A DNA stretch of 30,381 nucleotides, filler included, from an uncultured Methanosarcinales archaeon (GCA_964535955.1; 7 parts of 7 records of this genome joined end to end with filler, not necessarily neighbours in it); one strand, 5' to 3'; counted from the whole stretch's first letter, positions 1 through 9,561 are shown. Notes: generated by a model not told the origin, from the letters alone. Made by a program: numbers and translations.

Positions 1-935
1 AACGAGATCTCCACTGTCCCCAACTAGAAGCCACCGAACACTCTTTTCTGGTGCAAAAGCCAGAGATCTCCAGTGGGAAGTGAAGACCCCGTGAAACTTT
101 ACTGTAGCTTATAATTGTAGCATGAATTTTGTTGTGCAGCGTAAGTGGGAGTTGTTATGTTACGGTCGCCAGATCGTGAATAGACATCAATGAAACACCA
201 CTCTTCGAAATTTATGTTGCTTACTTTTCTTTAGAAAAGGACAGTTGTAGGTGGACAGTTTGGCTGGGGTGGCACCCTGCTGAAAAAATATCAGCAGGGC
301 CCAAAGGTTAACTCAATCGGGTCAGAAATCCGATGTAGAGTGCAAGAGCAAAAGTTAGCCTGATTGGAATCTTACTAATATGGATTCCAAAAACGAAAGT
401 TTGGTCTAGCGAACCTCAGTACTTCTTTAATAGGAGTCTGAGATGACTGAAAAGTTACTCCGGGGATAACTGAGTTGTCGCGCCCGAGAGCTCCTAATTT
501 TATTCACTATTATATTTTTTTGAATAAAATGAGCAAATCGACGGCGCGGCTTGCTTCATCGATGTCGGCTCTTCCTAACCTGGACGTGCACAAGCGTCCA
601 AGGGTGGGGGTGTTCACCCATCAAAAGGGATCGTGAGCTGGGTTCAGAACGCTGTGAGGCAGTTTGTTTATTATCTACTGGAGGTGTTTGAAATCTGAAA
701 GAAAGGGAGCCATAGTACGAGAGGAACTGGCTCTCGGCGCCACTGGTCTATCAGTTATCTGGAAAGGTATGCTGAGCAGCTACGCGCTAACGGATAAGTG
801 CTGAATGCATCTAAGCACGAAGCCTATCTTGAAAAGAGATATCATAGAACACTCTTAAAACAGGAGTTTAATGGGACTGAGGTGTAAGTATCAAGCTTCG
901 GCGAGATATTCAGCCTGCAGTTTCCAATTGTTCAT
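1..935 (+). rRNA. rrl: 23S rRNA, 3' portion (domains IV-VI), archaeal type; 5' part lies outside the window, 3' end approximate; interrupted by an intron at 496-536
   Basis: Conserved LSU motifs: GAAGACCCCGTGAAACTTTAC, TTTGGCTGGGGTGGC (P-loop), GGGGATAAC, CATCGATGTCGGCTC, GTGAGCTGGGTTCAGAAC, sarcin-ricin loop AGTACGAGAGGA (714-725), GCTGAATGCATCTAAG. Confidence 0.98.
496..536 (+). other. 41-nt archaeal bulge-helix-bulge (BHB) intron in 23S rRNA helix 89
   Basis: Central 4-bp helix GCTC(490-493)/GAGC(531-534), 3-nt bulges CTA(494-496) and AAA(535-537), inner perfect stem ATTTTATTCA(497-506)/TGAATAAAAT(521-530). Removal restores CCCGAGAGCTCCTATCGACGGCG, colinear with canonical H89. Confidence 0.9.
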
Positions 936-1015
936 ACTTTAAATGTGATCTTGTACTAGCATGGTTTTTTCTCTTTTTTAAAAAATCATCTTTAGAACTA
1001 GACGAGAGTCTATTT

Positions 1016-1510
1016 TTATTTTAAATTAAGAAGTTTAGAAAAAACTCTTTCTAATGAATCATCTTCTGATACTTGTATGAATTCAGAAATGGGGATTGAA
1101 TAACACTTTTTTTGATTAATCTTAGGTTCAAATGTAAAACCAGTTTTTATAATATTAATAATTGGTATCCAAAACCAGGTTCTATAATGATATTTTTCGC
1201 TTGAAATAACATACCATGATTGTAAATTAAAAATCCTTTGTAAATTAACATATTTTTCTACTTCTTCAGCATTAATAAAAAATTTTTCATATTTAACTGC
1301 TGGCTCTTTATCTTTGACATCAACTATTATGAATCCAAAATTAGGAATTAGTACCATAAAATCAGGTCTTTTTGTCATATGATTTTTTAATGCTTTTGAA
1401 AACGTATTAATATCTTGTTGAATATACCAGTAAGGGATATTATGTTTGTCTAACCAATTTTTGAACTTTTCTTCTGCTAGATTTTTATTATTTAGGTCCA
1501 TAATTATCAT
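1016..1510 (-). CDS. PD-(D/E)XK superfamily nuclease-like protein
   Basis: N-terminal AEEKF helix, RPDF, and IVDVK motifs in the expected order and spacing; start may be the Met at 1501. Confidence 0.6.
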   Translation of the reverse strand: MIIMDLNNKNLAEEKFKNWLDKHNIPYWYIQQDINTFSKALKNHMTKRPDFMVLIPNFGFIIVDVKDKEPAVKYEKFFINAEEVEKYVNLQRIFNLQSWYVISSEKYHYRTWFWIPIINIIKTGFTFEPKINQKKCYSIPISEFIQVSEDDSLERVFSKLLNLK

Positions 1511-1595
1511 TAAATCAAATTATTATTTAAATCTTTTCACAAAGTTCAACCTTTTTTACAAACATTTATATTCTCTTCTTGTTATTGACTATTTT

Positions 1596-2297
1596 ATGTT
1601 ACAAAGAGTTCAAAAAATAATTTCAAATGCAGGATATTGTTCTAGACGAAAAGCTGAAGAGTTAATTGAATTAGGTTTGGTTGTAGTAAATAATAAGATC
1701 ATTACAATTGGAGATAAAGCTGATCCTGACAAAGATTCTATTTATGTTGAAGGTGAAAAATTAAAATTTGGAAGGAAAATATATCTTGCTATGAACAAAC
1801 CTGCGCACATATTAACTACTCTTTATGATCCTGGTCAGAAACCAACCATTATGAAATATTTACAAGGTGTTGATGAACGAGTTTTTCCTGTTGGCAGACT
1901 TGATTATGATGCAGAAGGTTTATTATTGTTGACTAATGATGGTGATTTTTCTAATTTAGTTATGCACCCTAGATATGAAACTTTAAAAGTTTATCATGCA
2001 ACATTAAGAGATAAGATTAAGTATGGTGATCTTTCAATACTTGATAGAAAAATTAAATTAAAGGATGGGTTTGTTAAAGTTGATTCTTATAAATTAATAA
2101 AACCTAATGTTGTAGAAATCAAAATTCATGAAGGTAGAAATAAAATTGTGAAAAGAATTTTCAAAAAATTAGGTTTTTATGTGAAATATTTAAAAAGGGT
2201 ACAAATTGGTGTGATAAAATTAGGAAGATTAAAACCCGGCAAGTGGAGAAATTTAACTAATCTTGAAATTGAATCAGTTTTGTCCATTAAAAAATGA
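1596..2297 (+). CDS. rRNA pseudouridine synthase, RsuA/RluB family (S4 domain + catalytic domain)
   Basis: MLQRVQKIISNAGYCSRRKAEELI S4 domain, NKP motif, GRLDYDAEGLLLLTNDG with catalytic Asp, EGRN, LKRVQIG. The ATG at 1596 is preferred over the ORF-track start at 1446. Confidence 0.93.
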   Translation: MLQRVQKIISNAGYCSRRKAEELIELGLVVVNNKIITIGDKADPDKDSIYVEGEKLKFGRKIYLAMNKPAHILTTLYDPGQKPTIMKYLQGVDERVFPVGRLDYDAEGLLLLTNDGDFSNLVMHPRYETLKVYHATLRDKIKYGDLSILDRKIKLKDGFVKVDSYKLIKPNVVEIKIHEGRNKIVKRIFKKLGFYVKYLKRVQIGVIKLGRLKPGKWRNLTNLEIESVLSIKK

Positions 2298-2315
2298 TAA
2301 ATGATACATTAATTC

Positions 2316-3299
2316 TTACCACATTACTTTTGGAAATGAGACTATTTTTAAATTTTCTAGAACCAATGAGAGTGAATAATTTTTTAAATTGTCTTTAAAA
2401 TATGATCTTAATATGTTAAATTGTTCATCAAATTGTTTTGGATTTTCTGCAAGTATATTTATTTTTAAATCATAATTTCCAATTACCCTCTCTGCAAATA
2501 TTACCTTGTCTTGTGTTTTAAGAAATTTTGCAATTTTTCTTCTTTTTTCATTTGAAAATTTATTGATTCTTAGAAAAATAACATATCTTGTATAACCTAA
2601 TTTAGTATGATTAATGATTGCTTTTGCTCCTGATATGATCCCTATTTTTATTAATCTATTGAATCTATTTGAACATGTTTCAGGATTTAGATTTGTTCTT
2701 CTGGCTAATTCTGAAATAGGAAGTTTTGGACTTTTTGATAATGTGTTTAAAATTCTTCTATCTTTATTGTCTATTCTAATTTTCCCATAATATTTTTCAG
2801 GCTTTTTTATTTTATAATTCATTTTTGAAATAATTTCTAAATTTCCATGTTTTAAAGGGACTATGTTTATTAGCACATGGTTTTCTGCAATATTTTCTCC
2901 AAATTCTTCATTAATCTCTTCTATGAAATCAGAGAGTCCGAATTTATTTTTAACAGCAATTGTTAGGATAAGGTCCCAGTCACCACTACACCTATCAAAA
3001 TATTTGATATTTCTATTTTTTTTAATAAAACTACAAATCCTTTCTAATGCCTCATTTGTCACATTTTGAATTTTTATAAGGATAGTATAGGTCTTAAAAT
3101 TAAGTTTTGTATTACTTATTATTAGGTTGTATCCTGAGATAAATTTTTCTTTTTCTAATTTTTTTATTCTATATGCTGCAAGTTCTCTTGAAATATGTGC
3201 TAATTTTGATAACCTTGTTTGAGAAATTCTTGCATTTTGATTTAGTATTTTAAGCAAATCTTTATCCTTTTTATCTAGTTTTTTTATTTTTCTTGGCAT
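2316..3299 (-). CDS. Lrp/AsnC-family transcriptional regulator with two tandem HTH+RAM units
   Basis: LDKKDKDLLKILNQNARIS...RIKKLEKEKFISGY and IDNKDRRILNTLSKSPKLPISELAR...RFNRLIKIGIISG; GDWDL and GNYDL RAM motifs. Confidence 0.9.
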   Translation of the reverse strand: MPRKIKKLDKKDKDLLKILNQNARISQTRLSKLAHISRELAAYRIKKLEKEKFISGYNLIISNTKLNFKTYTILIKIQNVTNEALERICSFIKKNRNIKYFDRCSGDWDLILTIAVKNKFGLSDFIEEINEEFGENIAENHVLINIVPLKHGNLEIISKMNYKIKKPEKYYGKIRIDNKDRRILNTLSKSPKLPISELARRTNLNPETCSNRFNRLIKIGIISGAKAIINHTKLGYTRYVIFLRINKFSNEKRRKIAKFLKTQDKVIFAERVIGNYDLKINILAENPKQFDEQFNILRSYFKDNLKNYSLSLVLENLKIVSFPKVMW

Positions 3300-3364
3300 T
3301 ATTTTACAATAACTCTTACTTATTTATAAATTTTGTGTTAAATGTAAAAAATAGACTCTTAAAT

Positions 3365-3372
3365 TTTATATA
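3365..3372 (+). promoter_or_regulatory. Putative archaeal TATA box for the ncRNA-ligase-Ro60 unit
   Basis: TTTATATA lies about 27 nt upstream of the 5' stem of the first structured RNA (3399). A divergent TTTATAAA (about 3323-3330) precedes the lrp ATG. Confidence 0.55.
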
Positions 3373-3398
3373 ATACCTTTACTATCAATTATTCTATT

Positions 3399-3473
3399 AG
3401 AGGTGAAGAAAAGGTTACTTCGATGAATTCAAATTCATTTGTGAAAGCAATACCCCTTTTCTTATAGTCCTCT
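3399..3473 (+). ncRNA. Y RNA-like structured RNA, copy 1 (divergent)
   Basis: AGAGG(3399-3403)/CCTCT(3469-3473), AAGAAAAGG(3406-3414)/CCTTTTCTT(3455-3463), GTTACTTCG motif, hairpin ATGAAT-TCAA-ATTCAT, GNRA hairpin TTGT-GAAA-GCAA, 3' AGTCC. Confidence 0.7.
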
Positions 3474-3487
3474 TATATTATGTTCAC

Positions 3488-3587
3488 ATAGGGGTGCGGA
3501 AGGAGTTACTTCGGTGCTAAATGGTTCGATTCCATTAACAATGGGGAAACCTGTTGTCAATAAACACTTCTTTCACCAGTCCCCTAT
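3488..3587 (+). ncRNA. Y RNA-like (YrlA-like) structured RNA, copy 2, with tRNA-like T-arm
   Basis: ATAGGGG(3488-3494)/CCCCTAT(3581-3587), GGAAGGAGT(3498-3506)/ACTTCTTTC(3566-3574), GTTACTTCG, T-arm AATGG-TTCGATT-CCATT (3520-3536), GNRA hairpin ACAATGGG-GAAA-CCTGTTGT (3538-3557), U-tract after the stem; lies in the same locus as a Ro60 gene. Confidence 0.8.
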
Positions 3588-3715
3588 TTTTCGTGAAAAT
3601 TACGGTTAAAAACAAAAAATCATTATAAAAAAGAATTAGTATAAAGGATATGTATATATCATAAATATATCATAAATATACAATAAACACACAATATTTA
3701 ACGAGGTGCAAAAAA

Positions 3716-4771
3716 ATGCCATTTTTGAAATATAATAAAATATATAGAATTGATTTAGATGAAGATACAAGAAGTATTTTAGGAGAAAGTGGGTTAATTG
3801 TAACTGAAAAATTAGATGGATGTAACTTATTAATCTGGAAAGATGGTGGTAAGATTCATGTAGGTAAGAGAACTCAAGAATTGCCTATGTCAGTTAATGA
3901 TCATAAGAAAGGTATGTTTAGTGAAGTTGTAAAATGGGTAGAAAATACAAACTGGGATTTTTTACCGGAAGGGGTTATTTTATACGGGGAAGGGTTAAAA
4001 GGAAAAGAGTATGGGAAGGACAAATACAAGACAATAGGTAAGATTCAGTATGAAAGAAAAGAACCATTTGTATTGTTTGATGTGTTTGATTTTGAAAAAG
4101 ACTTTTGGTTTAGTCCTGAAAGTAAAAGATGGAAAAAGATTAGATCAGATTTTAAGAAAGCAAATGGATCTGAATTACCACAAGTACCTGTAATTGATGT
4201 AAGTTTTGAATTACACAGAATTAACGATTTAAATAAGTTGTTAGGCCCATCAGAATGGAGTGAGAATGTAAAGAAAGAAGGGGTTGTTGTTAAAAAGTAT
4301 TATCCTGATGGAAAAGTAGTGATGGTGAAGTTAGTTGATGATGAGTTCAAGGAATTTATCAAAAGAAAAGCAAAGCCTAAAGGAAGTGCATACTATGAAA
4401 TTGTTGGGTCTGTTGTGACCAAAGCAAGAGTTGAAAAAATTATGAGAAAAGAAAATGTAAAAAGTATCAAAGATTTCAGTAAATTAATCAAAGCTGTTGT
4501 TGAAGATGTTTTTGAAGAGGAAGAAAAAGAATTAAAAGAATTGGCGTGGAAAAATTTTAAAAAGAATTTAGGAAAAGTAATGCCACAAATGATCAAGAAA
4601 CACTTTGATGAGATTACAGCAGAAATAATTGAAAGAGAGGAGAAAGAAAAGATGGAAAAGATTGATAAAAAAACAGTTGGAGAAGAAAAAGTCAAAGTTG
4701 AGAATAAAGCAAGTGATAAGAATATAGTTACTAAAGGTGTTGTTCAAAAGGATCAAGTAATCTCAACTTAA
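3716..4771 (+). CDS. ATP-dependent RNA ligase, Rnl2 family
   Basis: Nucleotidyltransferase motifs I (TEKLDGCN), III (LYGE), IIIa (FVLFDV), IV (EGVVVK), V (MVKLVDDEFKE). C-terminal VTKARVEKIMRK...KDFSKLIKAVVEDVFEE resembles the T4 Rnl2 C-domain. RBS GAGGTG at 3703-3708. Confidence 0.88.
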   Translation: MPFLKYNKIYRIDLDEDTRSILGESGLIVTEKLDGCNLLIWKDGGKIHVGKRTQELPMSVNDHKKGMFSEVVKWVENTNWDFLPEGVILYGEGLKGKEYGKDKYKTIGKIQYERKEPFVLFDVFDFEKDFWFSPESKRWKKIRSDFKKANGSELPQVPVIDVSFELHRINDLNKLLGPSEWSENVKKEGVVVKKYYPDGKVVMVKLVDDEFKEFIKRKAKPKGSAYYEIVGSVVTKARVEKIMRKENVKSIKDFSKLIKAVVEDVFEEEEKELKELAWKNFKKNLGKVMPQMIKKHFDEITAEIIEREEKEKMEKIDKKTVGEEKVKVENKASDKNIVTKGVVQKDQVIST

Positions 4772-4779
4772 TCATATTC

Positions 4780-4844
4780 AAGGGGTGCGGAAGGAGTTAC
4801 TTCGGTACATAACCATAAAAACACTTCTTTCATTCAGTCCCCTT
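4780..4844 (+). ncRNA. Y RNA-like structured RNA, copy 3 (minimal, lacks T-arm)
   Basis: 4781-4806 is identical to 3490-3515 (26 nt), 4819-4832 is identical to 3562-3575, CAGTCCCCT is shared. Terminal stem AAGGGG/CCCCTT, TAC-TTCG-GTA hairpin, followed by a T7 tract. Confidence 0.78.
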
Positions 4845-4890
4845 TTTTTAATCCCCAGAGCACAAAGATGTTTGGGGTGGAGGTAAAAAA

Positions 4891-6444
4891 ATGAATAAAA
4901 CAATAAAAAGAATCTTTGAAGGATTCAGAACAAGAAAAATATACAGCAATGCAGACCATTGGAATAAAGAAGGTCAACTAAGTTTTAGTTTAACTGATGA
5001 AGATTTGTTTCTTCAAACACTATTAACAAATACTTGCTCAGATGTCTTTTATGCTGATAAGAATGAACTAATAGAAGATAGTGTAGAGATTCATTCCAAT
5101 ATGTTGATTAAGAATCCTAAGTTCTGTGCTCAAGCAATAGTCTATGCAAGAACTAAAGGGTTTATGAGGCTTCAACCAATACTTGGTTTAGTTTTTTTGT
5201 CTACTTTAAAGGATAAAAGGTATTTTAAATCAGCATTTCAAAGAGTAATTTTAACACCATCTGATTTAGAATCTTTTATTGATCTCTGTAGGAGTGATAT
5301 AATTAGAAAAGGTGTTGGTAGGTCTGTTAAAAAAGAAATAATTAATTATCTTAAAAATAAATTAACAGAATATCATGCAATCAAGTATAAGAATCAATTA
5401 AAAGATGCTATAAGGGTTAGTAGGCCTGCTTCAAAGGTTTTTGAAGGTGTTAAGAAAGACATTGTTGAGTTTATCATGAAAAATAAAGTTACTAGAAAAC
5501 TTGAACAAGTCAATGCAATTAGTGCTCTTAGAGATCTTAATGTTAAGAAAGATGAATCCAAGATAATAAAGCTGATTGAGAAAGGTAGACTGCCATATGA
5601 GTCTATTGTTGGCACAATTAGTCCAAGTCCAAAGATTTGGGAAGCATTACTTTACCAAATGCCTATGTTTGCAACATTAAGAAACCTAAATGTTATGGCA
5701 AGAAATAAGGTTTTTGAATCAAGCAAAGCAATAGACTATGTTTGTGAAAAGTTTAAGCATGTTGAAAAGAGTAGAATCTTGCCTTTTAGATTTCACACAG
5801 CTTTGAACAAGCTAGAATCAGATGTGCCTATGAAGATAAGAGATTGTCTTAGAGATGCACTTGAAAGAAGTTTTGTAAATTTGCCTGAGATCAAAGGCAG
5901 AACATGTATTTCACCTGATGTAAGTGGCAGTATGGGTGGAAGACCAATACAAATTGCAGCTATCTTTAGCGCAGCTTTGCTTAAGAAATGTGATGATAGT
6001 CTTGTTTTGCCTGTTGACACTAAATTGTATGAAAATACATGCAGTAGAAGAGATAGTATGATGACTAATGCAGAAAAAATCATGAAATTTGGTGGTGGTG
6101 GAACAGAACTTGATCTACCTATTGAGTATTTGCTTAAGAAAAAGATTAAGGTTGACAACTATATTTGTATTACTGATAGTGAAGAATGGTATAGTGAGAA
6201 CAGGTATTATGGAAGAACTGGTAGAGGATTTTACAAAGCATTGCTTAATTACAAGAAAAAAGTTAACAGAAATGTTAAGGTCTTTTTTGTGAGACTCCAA
6301 CCTTATGGAGATAGTATGGTTCCAAAACACGAACATGGTTTGTATAATATTGAAGGTTGGTCAAATACTGTGCTTGATTTTATAGCAACTATAATTAACA
6401 TTGATAAAGACCAAAAAGCAGATATTTCAAGAATTGAGGTTTAG
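4891..6444 (+). CDS. rsr: Ro60/Rsr-like TROVE domain protein with C-terminal vWA domain
   Basis: TROVE features (WNKEG, FYA, AIVYARTKGFMR, WEALLYQMPMFATLRNL, SRILPFRF), vWA MIDAS DVSGSM, GGGGTE, ITDSE, GWS. RBS GGAGGT at 4879-4884. Confidence 0.95.
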   Translation: MNKTIKRIFEGFRTRKIYSNADHWNKEGQLSFSLTDEDLFLQTLLTNTCSDVFYADKNELIEDSVEIHSNMLIKNPKFCAQAIVYARTKGFMRLQPILGLVFLSTLKDKRYFKSAFQRVILTPSDLESFIDLCRSDIIRKGVGRSVKKEIINYLKNKLTEYHAIKYKNQLKDAIRVSRPASKVFEGVKKDIVEFIMKNKVTRKLEQVNAISALRDLNVKKDESKIIKLIEKGRLPYESIVGTISPSPKIWEALLYQMPMFATLRNLNVMARNKVFESSKAIDYVCEKFKHVEKSRILPFRFHTALNKLESDVPMKIRDCLRDALERSFVNLPEIKGRTCISPDVSGSMGGRPIQIAAIFSAALLKKCDDSLVLPVDTKLYENTCSRRDSMMTNAEKIMKFGGGGTELDLPIEYLLKKKIKVDNYICITDSEEWYSENRYYGRTGRGFYKALLNYKKKVNRNVKVFFVRLQPYGDSMVPKHEHGLYNIEGWSNTVLDFIATIINIDKDQKADISRIEV

Positions 6445-6453
6445 TTTGGTTTA

Positions 6454-6518
6454 GTGATTGAGTTTTTTATTTGATTTTTTTATTTTTTTATTTTGTTTTG
6501 TTGTTTATTTTCAATCAC
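6454..6518 (+). terminator. Putative T-rich archaeal terminator after rsr
   Basis: Long oligo-T tracts bracketed by the inverted repeat GTGATTGA(6454-6461)/TCAATCAC(6511-6518). Confidence 0.5.
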
Positions 6519-6555
6519 AACAATATTTAAATATCATTTCTCTTGATTTTGTTTT

Positions 6556-7278
6556 ATGTTTGTTCAGATAATATTAGCAATACTTGTAGGTTGTTTTTTT
6601 GGAATCATCACAGGCCTTACTCCTGGAATACATATTAATCTTGTTTCTATTATGCTGATTAATATGTCTGGATATTTTTTAGGATTCACATCACCAATGT
6701 CATTGGCTGTGTTTATTATTGCAATGTCTATTACACACTCTTTTTTAGATACAATTCCTGCTGTTTTTTTAGGAGCTCCTGATCCTGCAGTTGCTTTAGG
6801 TGTATTGCCTGGCCATAAGTTGCTTTTAGAAGGAAGAGGGTATGAAGCTGTAAAATTGACTGTAATTGGCAGTATGTGTTCATTGATTTTAACTTTATTT
6901 CTTATTCCATTATTAGTTCCAGCTGTTCCTTTTCTTTATGAATTTATTTCACCTTATATTGGATACCTGTTATTGTTTGTAATTATTTTTATGATTGTTA
7001 AAGATTTAAAACCAAAAAAAATTATGCTGAATATGTTCATAGTTTTATTATCTGGTGCATTAGGATTGATTGTATTGAATTTTCCCAATCTTTCTCAGCC
7101 ACTTTTTCCAATGTTGTCAGGGTTATTTGGTACAAGTGCTTTGTTAATGTCATTAAGCAACAATGTTACAGTTCCTGAACAAAAGATTACTGAAGAAATA
7201 CATGTGGATAAAGTTAAAACAGGCAAGGCATTAGGCGCTGCAACTTTTTCAGGAATCTTAACTGGATTTCTGCCTGGA
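6556..7278 (+). CDS. Tripartite tricarboxylate transporter TctA-family (DUF112) membrane protein, 3' truncated by contig end
   Basis: GIITGLTPGIHIN, FLDTIPAVFLGAPD, LPGHKLLLEGRGYEA, LFPMLSGLFG, TGFLPG; many hydrophobic segments. Confidence 0.88.
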
Positions 7279-7815: not shown

Positions 7816-9561
7816 ATGGCAAAAATAAAGGTGTTGTCTCAAGATCTTATTAATAAGATTGCTGCAGGTGAAGTGATAGAAAAACCTAGTTCTGTAGTAA
7901 AAGAATTAATTGAAAATGCACTAGACGCATATGCTGACCAAGTATTGGTTGAGATAATCGAAGGTGGTAAGTCTTACATAAAAGTGCAAGATAATGGTTT
8001 TGGCATGAATGAAAAAGATGCAATGCTTAGTTTTCATAGACATGCTACTTCTAAAATTTCTGTTACACAAGATTTGTTTGACATAAATACACTGGGTTTC
8101 AGAGGTGAAGCATTGGCTTCAATTGCTGCTGTAAGTAACGTTAAGATCACGACCAGAGTTAAAGAAAAAATTGAAGGTGTTTTTATTGAAGTGGAAAATG
8201 GAACAATAAAATATAAAGCAAGTGTTGGTTGTCCTGTTGGTACTGTAATCGAGGTTTCTAATTTATTTTATAATACTCCTGCTAGGAAAAAATATTTAGA
8301 ATCTATACAAAATGAAACAAGACACATAACAGATATTGTGATTAGATATTCTTTGATTAATCCCAAGGTTGGGTTTAAATTAATAAGCAATGGAAATATT
8401 ATTATTAATACTCCTTTTACACCTGATGTATTGGCAAATGTAGCAAGTATATATGGGGCTGATGTTGCAAAAACACTTTTACCAATTAATTATTCATCTG
8501 ATTCAATAGAAATAAAAGGGTTTATATCTAAACCTAGTTATACAAGGGCTGATAAAACACAGCAAAGTGTTTTTGTTAATAAGAGGTATGTGAAGAATAA
8601 AATTATTAGTTCTGCTATACATGATTCTTACAAAGAATTATTAATGTTGCACAGGCATCCGTTTGTTATTCTAGATATTACTATTCCTGCAAGATCAATA
8701 GATGTGAATGTGCATCCTACGAAAAAAGAGATCAGATTATCTAAAGAAGGTTTAGTCTACCAAATTGTGTTTGATGCTGTAAAAAAGACTTTGCAAGAAA
8801 ATAATTTAGTAACTGAAAGAGAGATAACTGACAAAGAATTACAGAAATCATTCCACCAAACAATAAAGCCAATAACAGAACAACAAGAAGCACTAAAAGC
8901 AAACAAAGTAGTTGAACCAATGTCACAACAAACATTGGCAAAACCAGATACACAAGTCTCAACAAGTGAACAAACACAACAACTTCCTCAAGTAAACATA
9001 CTTGGTCTTGCACATAATTGCTACATATTAGCTGAAACTCCTGATGGTGTTGCGATCATTGACATGCATGCTGCAGAAGAAAGGATTAATCTAGAAAATC
9101 TGCAACAACAGTATGAAGATAAAGGCATAAAAACACAACAATTGCTTTCTCCTGAAACCATTACTTTAAGTCCAACAGATTCTCAATTATTACAATCAAA
9201 CTTAACACAATTAACTAATTATGGCTTCATTGTAGAGCACTTTGGTCAAAATACATTCTTAATAAGGTCAACACCTGTGATAATGAATAAACAACAGAAA
9301 AAAGAATTGCTTCTTGACATATTAGATGAATTAAATGCAAACAAAGCAAAGCTCATAGACCAGATAAAAGACAAAGTCATAAGAAGAATGGCTTGCAGAA
9401 AGTCAATCAAGCAAGGAGACAGGATTGAGATGGCTGAGATGTATGCTTTAGTACGTAAGTTGTACAAATGCAAAGATCCTTATGCTTGTGCGCATGGTCG
9501 TCCCACTATTATTAACTTAACAAAGTATGATCTTGAGAAAAAGTTTAAGAGGGTTGTTTAA
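7816..9561 (+). CDS. mutL: DNA mismatch repair protein MutL (endonuclease type)
   Basis: IAAGEVIEKPSSVVKELIENALDA, DNGFGM, HATSKI, TLGFRGEALASI, DVNVHPTK; C-terminal DMHAAEERINLE, ACR, CAHGRP. Confidence 0.98.
   Translation: MAKIKVLSQDLINKIAAGEVIEKPSSVVKELIENALDAYADQVLVEIIEGGKSYIKVQDNGFGMNEKDAMLSFHRHATSKISVTQDLFDINTLGFRGEALASIAAVSNVKITTRVKEKIEGVFIEVENGTIKYKASVGCPVGTVIEVSNLFYNTPARKKYLESIQNETRHITDIVIRYSLINPKVGFKLISNGNIIINTPFTPDVLANVASIYGADVAKTLLPINYSSDSIEIKGFISKPSYTRADKTQQSVFVNKRYVKNKIISSAIHDSYKELLMLHRHPFVILDITIPARSIDVNVHPTKKEIRLSKEGLVYQIVFDAVKKTLQENNLVTEREITDKELQKSFHQTIKPITEQQEALKANKVVEPMSQQTLAKPDTQVSTSEQTQQLPQVNILGLAHNCYILAETPDGVAIIDMHAAEERINLENLQQQYEDKGIKTQQLLSPETITLSPTDSQLLQSNLTQLTNYGFIVEHFGQNTFLIRSTPVIMNKQQKKELLLDILDELNANKAKLIDQIKDKVIRRMACRKSIKQGDRIEMAEMYALVRKLYKCKDPYACAHGRPTIINLTKYDLEKKFKRVV

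Follow-up and report, generated by a model that had tools for sequence, protein, structure and literature searches.

Does an archaeon encode Ro60 together with Y RNAs, and does an RNA ligase belong to the same system? Work on Ro60 and Y RNAs has covered animals, bacteria, and phages. Both questions are raised by a locus in the genome GCA_964535955.1, at positions 3365–6518 of a 30,381-nucleotide (nt) stretch of DNA, filler included, that we refer to as the window. A sequence-only reading of the window had placed on one strand a TATA box, two noncoding RNAs (nc1 and nc2), a gene for an Rnl2-type RNA ligase, a third RNA (nc3), a gene for Ro60 with TROVE and vWA domains, and a T-rich terminator, with a double-Lrp regulator diverging upstream, and it had proposed that these parts form one Ro60–Y RNA–Rnl2 system. 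Each part lies where it had been placed, but the proposal that they constitute one linked system was not supported in that form. The locus holds a new archaeal form of the Ro60/Y RNA system, in which the pairing of Ro60 with an Rnl2-type ligase is a single-genome curiosity. With moderate confidence, we interpret it as a horizontally acquired 4.2 kb island that brings a Ro60/Y RNA module to a marine DPANN archaeon, with the ligase as a lineage-specific repair add-on, and we claim no physical complex between the two. The features of the island are listed below, where R1 is the covariance model described in the next section and aa stands for amino acids.

2298–6473: island of 4.2 kb (comparison with the same-genus genome G072)
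2316–3299, − strand: double Lrp/AsnC-type regulator, 327 aa, divergent from the RNA genes (Pfam)
3365–3371, + strand: TTTATAT, putative TATA box of the Y RNA unit (sequence)
3393–3480, + strand: candidate Y RNA nc1, short YrlB-like form, paired core at about 3399–3473 (R1 match, fold)
3484–3592, + strand: candidate Y RNA nc2, long YrlA-like form (R1 match, T-loop motif, fold)
3716–4771, + strand: Rnl2-family ATP-dependent RNA ligase, 351 aa (PF09414)
4775–4850, + strand: candidate Y RNA nc3, short copy of the nc2 stem (R1 match)
4891–6444, + strand: Ro60 ortholog, 517 aa, TROVE plus vWA (Pfam)
6445–6510, + strand: T-rich tract 3′ of the Ro60 stop, at the right edge of the island (sequence)

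Ro60 and its candidate Y RNAs

The predicted protein encoded at 4891–6444 is a true, full-length Ro60. It contains the Pfam domains TROVE (E 3.1e-11) and vWA_Ro60 (E 3.5e-12), with scores of 43.5 bits for PF05731 (cut-off 23) and 47 bits for PF25045 (cut-off 27.7); it aligns with solved Ro60 chains over residues 25–499 (E 6.6e-18), and it matches phrog_850 over residues 25–503. Residues D343, S345, S347, T405, and D429, which we take to be the vWA metal-ion site (DxSxS, then T, then D), are invariant across 64 homologs. The Ro60/TROVE–vWA assignment made in the sequence-only reading agrees with all of these comparisons. The nearest relatives are P0001 (65% identity), P0002 (65%, or 64% by BLASTP), which is named Candidatus Woesearchaeota, and P0004 (46%, or 45% by BLASTP); the next are about 39% identical and come mostly from Paenibacillus and other Firmicutes. 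A crude neighbour-joining tree without support values grouped the four DPANN-type Ro60s in a single clade that lay among bacterial sequences, and it pointed to no clear donor.

All three RNAs are encoded on the Ro60 strand, at distances of 41 to 1500 nt upstream of that gene. They occupy two gaps: 416 nt before the ligase gene (3300–3715), in which there is no + strand open reading frame (ORF) of at least 50 aa, and 119 nt between the ligase and Ro60 genes. Three copies of the motif GTTACTTCG are present, all on the + strand and all in these gaps (0.01 copies expected; none of 100 shuffles reached three copies), and each copy sits in an RNA whose ends pair. The end-to-end stems fold with z values of −3.1 (nc1), −2.3 (nc2), and −2.1 (nc3), and the RNAs have an internal loop with GGUG and AGUCC and the motif GUUACUUCG. 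The longest, nc2, continues with a T-arm-like hairpin (5 bp stem, loop UUCGAUU) and a GAAA-capped hairpin before a run of five T residues. The shortest, nc3, repeats the nc2 stem and has no tRNA-like part. It begins 10 nt beyond the ligase stop codon, ends in a run of seven T residues, and is identical to nc2 over stretches of 26 nt (4781–4806) and 14 nt (4819–4832). Set beside a ligase that is 49% identical to its nearest relative, this identity would fit a recent duplication or ongoing homogenisation.

To compare these RNAs with others, we built the covariance model R1 from seven archaeal RNAs only, namely those of the window and of two further loci with a close Ro60 ortholog. One of these, L013, is a 69 kb contig labelled Candidatus Woesearchaeota (Ro60 64% identical to that of the window); the other, L044, is a 4.1 kb metagenome contig (64% over residues 1–275). 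Orthologs of nc1 lie at 5632–5709 in L013 and at 3115–3192 in L044. R1 was run over 38 sources (372 kb), with matches taken at E up to 10; one of the two RNAs of L044 was listed by the search, and the second, seen by eye, was part of the training alignment. The search gave 31 matches, of which 30 precede a Ro60 gene on the same strand by no more than about 640 nt; these 30 come from 21 of the 38 sources (three archaeal, 11 from Paenibacillus, three from Synergistaceae, one Methanophagales with two matches, two from IMG/VR, and two unnamed contigs). The 31st (E 2.3) is inside a Ro60 ORF and is probably a chance match, and five ligase-only loci gave none. As a control, R1 was run with filters off against 32 kb of unlinked DNA, where no score exceeded the 16.4 bits reached within a 23S rRNA gene; nc1, nc2, and nc3 scored 68, 69.4, and 67.4 bits and are the sole R1 matches in the whole 1.49 Mb genome.

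Across the 31-row alignment (A6), which was fitted to the R1 model, 88% of the cells in the two helices are paired, compared with 52–64% when the partner column is slid. Both sides change in 15 of the 18 pairs, and the covariation score was reached by none of 500 shuffles. All 31 rows carry GG(U/C)G at the junction of the outer stem and the internal loop. Two of the Paenibacillus matches coincide with hits to the Rfam YrlA model over model positions 1–114, whose scores of 39.9 bits (E 2.5e-5) and 37.2 bits (E 1.5e-4) fall short of the gathering score of 69, and the same two RNAs carry the GGUUACUUCG motif (GGGUUACUUCGA, the motif named in the sequence-only reading). Loci typically combine a single long RNA, which has a T-loop-like GTTCRANNC hairpin, with at least one short RNA, which does not. 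The long RNAs are nc2, L013 5782–5875, 5705–5815 of the Methanophagales contig L020, and the 138-nt Paenibacillus RNAs, all of which carry the T-loop motif GTTCGATTC. In L044, the second RNA has, like nc3, little beyond the two stems and the motif. The long and short forms appear to mirror the bacterial pair YrlA and YrlB. Homology and covariation together support the identification of the window RNAs as Y RNAs in the bacterial YrlA/YrlB sense, with a homology that runs indirectly, through Paenibacillus. The structured Y-like RNAs proposed earlier are supported by R1 homology, by covariation, and by the sub-threshold YrlA matches in Paenibacillus.

Several observations weigh against this identification. 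A search of 3250–4950 with Rfam at E up to 10 returned three chance-level hits and no Y_RNA or YrlA, and nc2 has no D-arm mimic. The predicted Ro60 contact site matches approximately: passages of Chen et al. (2014; PMC4201824) give GNCGAAN0-1G as the Ro60-contact motif and liken it to the GGUCCGA touched by frog Ro60; nc1 has GGUGAAG, one change from this motif, and nc2 and nc3 have GGUGCGG. In addition, the public sequencing runs listed for the Ro60/Y RNA stretch comprise eight of DNA and none of RNA. As a tRNA, nc2 was recognized neither by ARAGORN, which found no tRNA anywhere in the window, nor by the Rfam tRNA model.

The RNAs might instead be cis-acting leader elements by which Ro60 or the Lrp regulator controls Ro60 expression. 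They do lie upstream of Ro60 on the same strand, the one clear TATA box precedes the whole RNA array, and in L013 and L044 the last RNA and Ro60 are not separated by a T-run. In the window, however, runs of five and seven T residues follow nc2 and nc3, the ligase gene puts 1.3 kb between nc1/nc2 and Ro60, and the homologous bacterial RNAs match YrlA, which passages of PMC4201824 treat as a stable Ro60-bound RNA. We regard leader elements as a very improbable explanation and retain the Y RNA identification.

A second archaeal lineage has a similar arrangement. The Methanophagales contig L020 (JAPDIG010000001.1) carries a Ro60 gene whose product is 36% identical to that of the window, and directly upstream of it are R1 matches at 5705–5815 (with the T-loop motif) and 5842–5918; a weak tRNA-like match (E 0.4) lies at 5646–5701. 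The neighbouring ORFs have no Pfam match, save an IS605 OrfB/TnpB-type gene about 2 kb downstream. Candidate archaeal Y RNAs are thereby at hand in two lineages, DPANN Woesearchaeota-type archaea and a Methanophagales archaeon. The smallest are about 60–75 nt long, a near-bare predicted Ro60-binding stem plus one motif, which should make them handy for binding and structural work.

Regulation, host, and the chromosomal island

The regulator (2316–3299, − strand) contains two HTH_24/HTH_AsnC stretches and an AsnC_trans_reg ligand-binding domain (Pfam). Orthologs occupy the same divergent position in L013 (59% identity) and L044 (48%), and in all three archaeal loci the regulator start codon is 93–94 nt from the first RNA. 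In the same three loci, the first RNA has a GRGGUG core that is preceded, at 33–35 nt, by the sequence TTTATAT, presumably the promoter. About 15–20 nt upstream of the TATA box, the three loci share a further box, GTAAAAAATAGA (GTAAAAAATAAA in L013), which contains GTAAAAAAT and lies at approximately 3340–3352 in the window, 5581–5592 in L013, and 3066–3077 in L044; it may be an operator of the double-Lrp regulator or an extended promoter element.

Signals of an archaeal type continue downstream. Oligo-T tracts are found 3′ of nc2 (T5), nc3 (T7), and Ro60, and the last of these, at 6445–6510, is likely to be an archaeal terminator. No TATA box was seen when the sequence between the ligase stop codon and nc3 was read; because nc3 starts 10 nt past that stop with no promoter between, it is probably produced from the ligase transcript. 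The window and L013 share a Shine-Dalgarno-like stretch, GGTGGAGGT, before the Ro60 ATG. A small hairpin of the form CCCC..N..GGGG runs into this stretch in both (window 4850–4890, L013 5965–6000), and L044 has a different, likewise self-complementary stretch before Ro60; the hairpin could occlude the ribosome-binding site. The TATA promoter, the oligo-T tracts, GGTGGAGGT, and a tandem Lrp/AsnC regulator in place of RtcR or a WYL protein underlie our view, held with good confidence, that the locus encodes a Ro60/Y RNA ribonucleoprotein module adapted to an archaeal host.

The locus is on contig C24, which corresponds to window positions 1–7278 only; the remainder of the window is N or belongs to other contigs. 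The genome (1.49 Mb, 31 contigs) is rated 100% complete. C24 begins with the 3′ 947 nt of an archaeal 23S rRNA gene (the only Rfam match of the window at gathering scores), and this fragment is 88–92% identical to those of three same-genus genomes and 73–83% identical to those of other families of the order. In the same-genus genome G072, the 23S rRNA gene is followed by a 164-aa ORF (86% identity), a pseudouridine synthase gene (73%), 423 bp, and a TctA gene (88%). In C24, positions 2298–6473 replace these 423 bp between the pseudouridine synthase and TctA genes, and similarity resumes at 6474. None of the three same-genus genomes has Ro60. The whole cassette is thus a 4.2 kb island in a real archaeal chromosome. 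At its edges there are no flanking direct repeats beyond T-rich low-complexity matches, and the island contains no integrase. The 23S identity and the synteny with G072 support a DPANN (Woesearchaeota-type) archaeon as the host, in accord with the earlier assignment. The genes that flank the island are the following.

1016–1510, − strand: ORF of 164 aa between the 23S rRNA and pseudouridine synthase genes, no Pfam match
After the 164-aa ORF in C24: pseudouridine synthase with an S4 domain (Pfam)
3′ of the T-rich tract: TctA-family transporter, cut by the contig end, its ORF reaching N at about 7280

The 86% identity in G072 indicates that the 164-aa ORF is a real conserved gene, of unknown function.

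Another candidate explanation is an artefact of assembly or binning, by which archaeal rRNA was joined to DNA from elsewhere; the sequence-only reading had listed a chimera among the outcomes that would refute it. C24 is short (7.3 kb) and starts inside an rRNA gene. On the other side, both of its flanks are syntenic with G072, the 23S fragment fits the genus assignment, and GC content is even along C24 outside the rRNA (0.21–0.36). The same regulator–RNA–Ro60 cassette, moreover, is found in L013, a 69 kb Woesearchaeota contig, with the archaeal ribosomal protein genes S19e and L31e within 3 kb. The stretch is present in eight DNA runs from two studies, labelled marine or seawater metagenome; two of them may be the source of this DNA, and bridging was judged on four runs that are not so flagged. 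Contigs from these four runs span, without differences, the junctions 23S–164-aa ORF (712–1347), pseudouridine synthase–Lrp (2039–2536), Lrp–nc1 (2847–3454), nc2–ligase (3449–3961), and Ro60–TctA (5772–7109). The ligase–nc3–Ro60 junction (4618–5103) has no listed bridging piece; it has depth in run X3 and no cover in X4 and X6. A chimera is very unlikely, and we give next to no credence to an artefact.

Some single metagenome contigs match the window up to positions 3165, 3269, 3474, 3787, 4096, or 4316 and then diverge, and the one that breaks at 3474 stops right at the end of nc1. These contigs may stem from other organisms or reflect strain variation in the island. The rest of the window (7279–30381) is not contiguous with the locus; an ORF at 7816–9561, on other sequence, is MutL-like by its N-terminal sequence alone.

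The ligase and its occurrence beside Ro60

The ligase is an intact Rnl2-family enzyme with its catalytic residues in place. It matches PF09414 (RNA_ligase, E 1.1e-17). A word-based search found only two matches, which gave the protein a near-orphan look, and a profile search placed it in a large family of proteins of about 300 residues (3620 representatives at E up to 0.001). With a profile of 72 family sequences, the best solved match was T4 Rnl2 (E 7.9e-23, residues 2–326 of 335), and because the alignment runs through residue 326, it covers the Rnl2-specific C-terminal domain. An AlphaFold2 model (pLDDT 88.3; an earlier model from three sequences, with pLDDT 62.7, was set aside) has helices at 225–333, and Foldseek aligned it with NgrRnl of Naegleria through the nucleotidyltransferase domain and with full-length T4 Rnl2 over 321 columns. 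K32, D34, E92, E188, and K205 align with K170, D172, E227, E312, and K326 of NgrRnl, the residues mutated in the deposited structures. The KxDGxN region reads TEKLDGCN, in which the lysine is K32; among the 72 sequences, K32 is at least 90% conserved and the other four residues are invariant. The profile match and the aligned residues confirm the Rnl2-type assignment of the sequence-only reading. A Lys/Glu-rich tail beyond about residue 315 is modelled with low confidence and is absent from P0121, P0122, and the closest ortholog, which is encoded in genome G282.

Comparison with T4 Rnl2 shows the same layout, an N-terminal nucleotidyltransferase domain and a helical C-terminal domain, at 18% identity in the fold alignment. 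The window protein differs in that the second lysine of the T4 "KCK" is valine in its family, and in having the extra Lys/Glu-rich tail and a cellular archaeal host. Full-length matches to phrog_548 "RNA ligase" were obtained with two relatives, P0124 and P0125. Rnl2-family ligases are ATP dependent and seal 3′-OH/5′-phosphate nicks in duplex RNA, and the window ligase would be expected to act on nicked duplex RNA as well. The island contains no end-healing enzyme. PIN nucleases, which leave 3′-OH/5′-phosphate ends, were considered as a source of directly ligatable ends, an idea that found no support: the genome has only one PIN match, inside a 653-aa frame.

Is this ligase a conserved partner of Ro60? 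Sequence upstream of a close Ro60 ortholog is available for three archaeal loci, the window, L013, and L044. The regulator, the TATA box, two Y RNA candidates, and Ro60 are present in all three; the ligase and a third RNA are present in the window only. In L013 and L044, the second RNA is followed directly by Ro60, 125 and about 30 nt away. The three archaeal Ro60s are nearly equidistant (63–65% identity), so that gain of the ligase in the window lineage and its loss in the other two are inseparable by parsimony alone.

Wider searches speak against a conserved link. A hidden Markov model of the ligase family found no member at the 31 other Ro60 places, several of which are short loci. We sampled 401 genomes each at the order and phylum levels (two phylum scans listed the same families in the same order and were taken as one sample). 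Ro60 was found in three genomes of the order sample, that of the window included. In the phylum sample, Ro60 was found in two genomes, the second with a weak 88-residue match, and the ligase family in six; both genes occurred in the genome of the window only, and the five other ligase genomes had no Ro60 match. The closest ligase ortholog (E 6.6e-94, 296 aa) belongs to G282, a 92% complete genome of the same order with no Ro60 match. Its gene lies between a PIN-domain gene and an ArsR regulator, followed by a class-V aminotransferase (Aminotran_5), and its locus has neither an R1 match nor Ro60. The link between ligase and Ro60 is a single case in one genome (one of three archaeal loci) and not a system. 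The claim of a Ro60–Y RNA–Rnl2 system is unsupported in that form: the ligase and third RNA are missing from L013 and L044, and no other Ro60 place of the 31 examined has the ligase. The sequence-only reading had itself named a failure of ligase and TROVE genes to co-occur elsewhere as grounds for abandoning it, and the pairing recurred neither at those places nor in the phylum sample.

Two further parts of that reading need revision. It had the Rnl2 ligase take the place of RtcB; both RtcB (contig C7) and RtcA (contig C1) are encoded elsewhere in the genome, so the ligase is no substitute for them, and splicing ends are expected to be joined by RtcB, not by Rnl2. It also knew of no pairing of Ro60 with Rnl2, and the association of Ro60 with an ATP-dependent RNA ligase has a precedent in the Paenibacillus order Ro60–RlaP–Hen1–Pnkp, which is described below.

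Single-protein queries found nothing in genome or viral contigs, and alignment queries were needed. We found no ligase relatives in IMG/VR viral contigs and one weak match in 50,697 phage records (27% identity, Staphylococcus phage). The ligase gene of G282 (L039:937–2391, G282:C3) divergently adjoins the PIN-domain nuclease gene, and the two could be a pairing of a nuclease with a repair ligase.

Possible roles and relation to known systems

By analogy with bacteria and animals, the conserved unit, a divergent double Lrp/AsnC regulator, a TATA-driven pair of Y RNAs (one short, one longer with a mimic of the tRNA T arm), and Ro60, might work as follows. The Y RNAs would contact the Ro60 ring on its outer face by way of the stem that has the conserved GGYG-containing internal loop, and they would gate or direct the handling of misfolded or damaged structured RNA by Ro60. 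In the window lineage alone, the Rnl2 ligase would have been placed between the Y RNAs and Ro60, along with a third Y RNA that copies the nc2 stem; as nc3 lies in the 3′ untranslated region of the ligase, ligase and nc3 would be made together. We infer Ro60–RNA binding, co-transcription, ligase activity, and any cooperation between Ro60 and the ligase. A functional alliance of the two proteins is plausible, because Ro60 is repeatedly found beside RNA ligases (in Paenibacillus, and with RtcB near the TROVE gene of HGTV-1) and because the passages available from published work link Ro60 with RtcB in bacteria and list TROVE proteins among the Rnl1/Rnl2/RtcB repair sets of jumbo phages. In the window, it rests on one arrangement.

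How close such an alliance might be can be answered in several ways. The ligase and Ro60 could form a three-part machine with a Y RNA as the tether between them, nc3 being the most plausible one, as in the Deinococcus Y RNA/PNPase complex. Y RNA genes flank the ligase gene on its own strand, nc3 repeats the putative Ro60-binding stem of nc2 exactly (26 + 14 nt) just after the ligase stop, the Lys/Glu-rich tail is missing from stand-alone relatives, and Y RNAs are described as tethers in passages of 10.1101/312249. Set against this, the arrangement occurs once, and nc3 is the shortest of the RNAs, with almost no module past the stem that could hold a second protein; we consider such a putative machine unlikely. 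A bolder version, which we hold to be more doubtful still, is a mobile RNA-repair particle in which nc3, cut from the 3′ end of the ligase mRNA, would bind Ro60 by the stem that it has in common with nc2 and bring Rnl2 to nicked RNAs held by Ro60, under the control of an Lrp-type switch, with the ligase tail perhaps as the handle. If this were true, archaea would gain their first Y RNA ribonucleoprotein, and a Y RNA would for the first time be seen to tether a ligase rather than a nuclease.

At the other extreme, the ligase could be an unrelated passenger in a permissive spot, with a job of its own such as the sealing of nicked tRNA, and nc3 a by-product of recombination. Ro60 loci without the ligase and ligase genes without Ro60 both exist, the family is large and mostly free-standing, and the ligase gene is preceded by an AT-rich region of its own, with TATA-like stretches and a GAGGTG ribosome-binding site. 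Yet the two genes fall under RNA damage-response themes for which linkage recurs elsewhere, and its perfect stem and conserved motifs suggest that nc3 is under selection or arose very recently. We judge a mere passenger to be improbable too, and we favor the horizontally acquired Ro60/Y RNA module with a lineage-specific ligase add-on. So read, the locus offers a compact, conserved archaeal Ro60 module with a new kind of regulator, and the ligase insertion is a natural experiment in which an RNA repair enzyme has been attached to it. Should the two cooperate, the idea of the Y RNA as a tether would extend from nucleases to ligases.

Among bacterial systems, the rsr-yrlBA-rtcBA unit of Salmonella (RF02553) resembles the window in having Ro60 beside one long tRNA-like RNA and one or more short Y RNAs, and in its linkage to an RNA ligase gene. 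The RNAs share with YrlA and YrlB a covarying terminal stem, an internal loop, and a second stem, as well as a T-arm mimic in the long RNA. In contrast to the bacterial system, the host of the window is archaeal, its ligase is an ATP-dependent Rnl2 and not RtcB, and its regulator is a tandem Lrp/AsnC protein and not RtcR (whose use in Salmonella is stated in PMC7790460); its RNAs are reduced relative to YrlA, with no D-arm mimic and no Rfam match.

A further parallel is a Paenibacillus amylolyticus locus (L021, 4105–12476) with a divergent WYL/WCX regulator, a YrlA-like RNA, Ro60, RlaP, Hen1, and Pnkp with a ligase domain. In the nearest bacterial relatives that are named, Ro60 is therefore already coupled to a repair set with an ATP-dependent RNA ligase. 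Common to both loci are Ro60 (34–39% identity), GGGUUACUUCGA in the Y RNAs, and the position of Ro60 in a row with an ATP-dependent RNA ligase. Unlike that of the window, the Paenibacillus ligase is a domain of Pnkp, accompanied by a kinase, the Hen1 methyltransferase, and RlaP, so that end-healing is supplied; its regulator is a WYL protein, and its Y RNA is full length (138 nt) with a D-arm. Ro60 of the Thermus phage phiLo likewise has two Y-like RNAs, Yrl1 and Yrl2, directly upstream, with a stem-bulge-stem form, according to passages of PMC12135203. That virus, however, infects a bacterium, and the same passages propose the host PNPase as the partner. In the genome of the window, two neighbouring RNase PH-type genes (266- and 253-aa frames) look like an exosome rather than PNPase; PNPase is taken to be missing on that ground alone, with no direct search for it.

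Passages of PMC12135203 also state that Ro60 occurs in all three domains of life. The literature that we searched described no archaeal Y RNA, in keeping with the sequence-only reading, which knew of no characterised one; earlier reviews may discuss archaeal Ro60 or an Rnl2-type pairing. A literature search for TROVE proteins in DPANN archaea returned no relevant paper. Ro60 homologs tied to archaea are known from the virus HGTV-1, the Asgard "Nidhogg" viruses, and Borgs: passages of 10.1101/2021.07.29.454249 report that the Nidhogg viruses code for Ro60 and an RNA ligase, and passages of PMC11208441 that the Borg core cluster contains a TROVE protein. The window gene differs from these in lying in a cellular chromosome, the identity to its product is about 25%, and the passages on the viral and element proteins describe no Y RNAs.

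R1, run with filters off over the HGTV-1 stretch (L065, NC_021328.1 66069–73179), gave a best score of 9.5 bits and no Y-like RNA. In that stretch, the TROVE gene lies about 4 kb from RtcB on the same strand, with an intron-bearing tRNA-Asp gene between the two and a nucleotidyltransferase gene just after.

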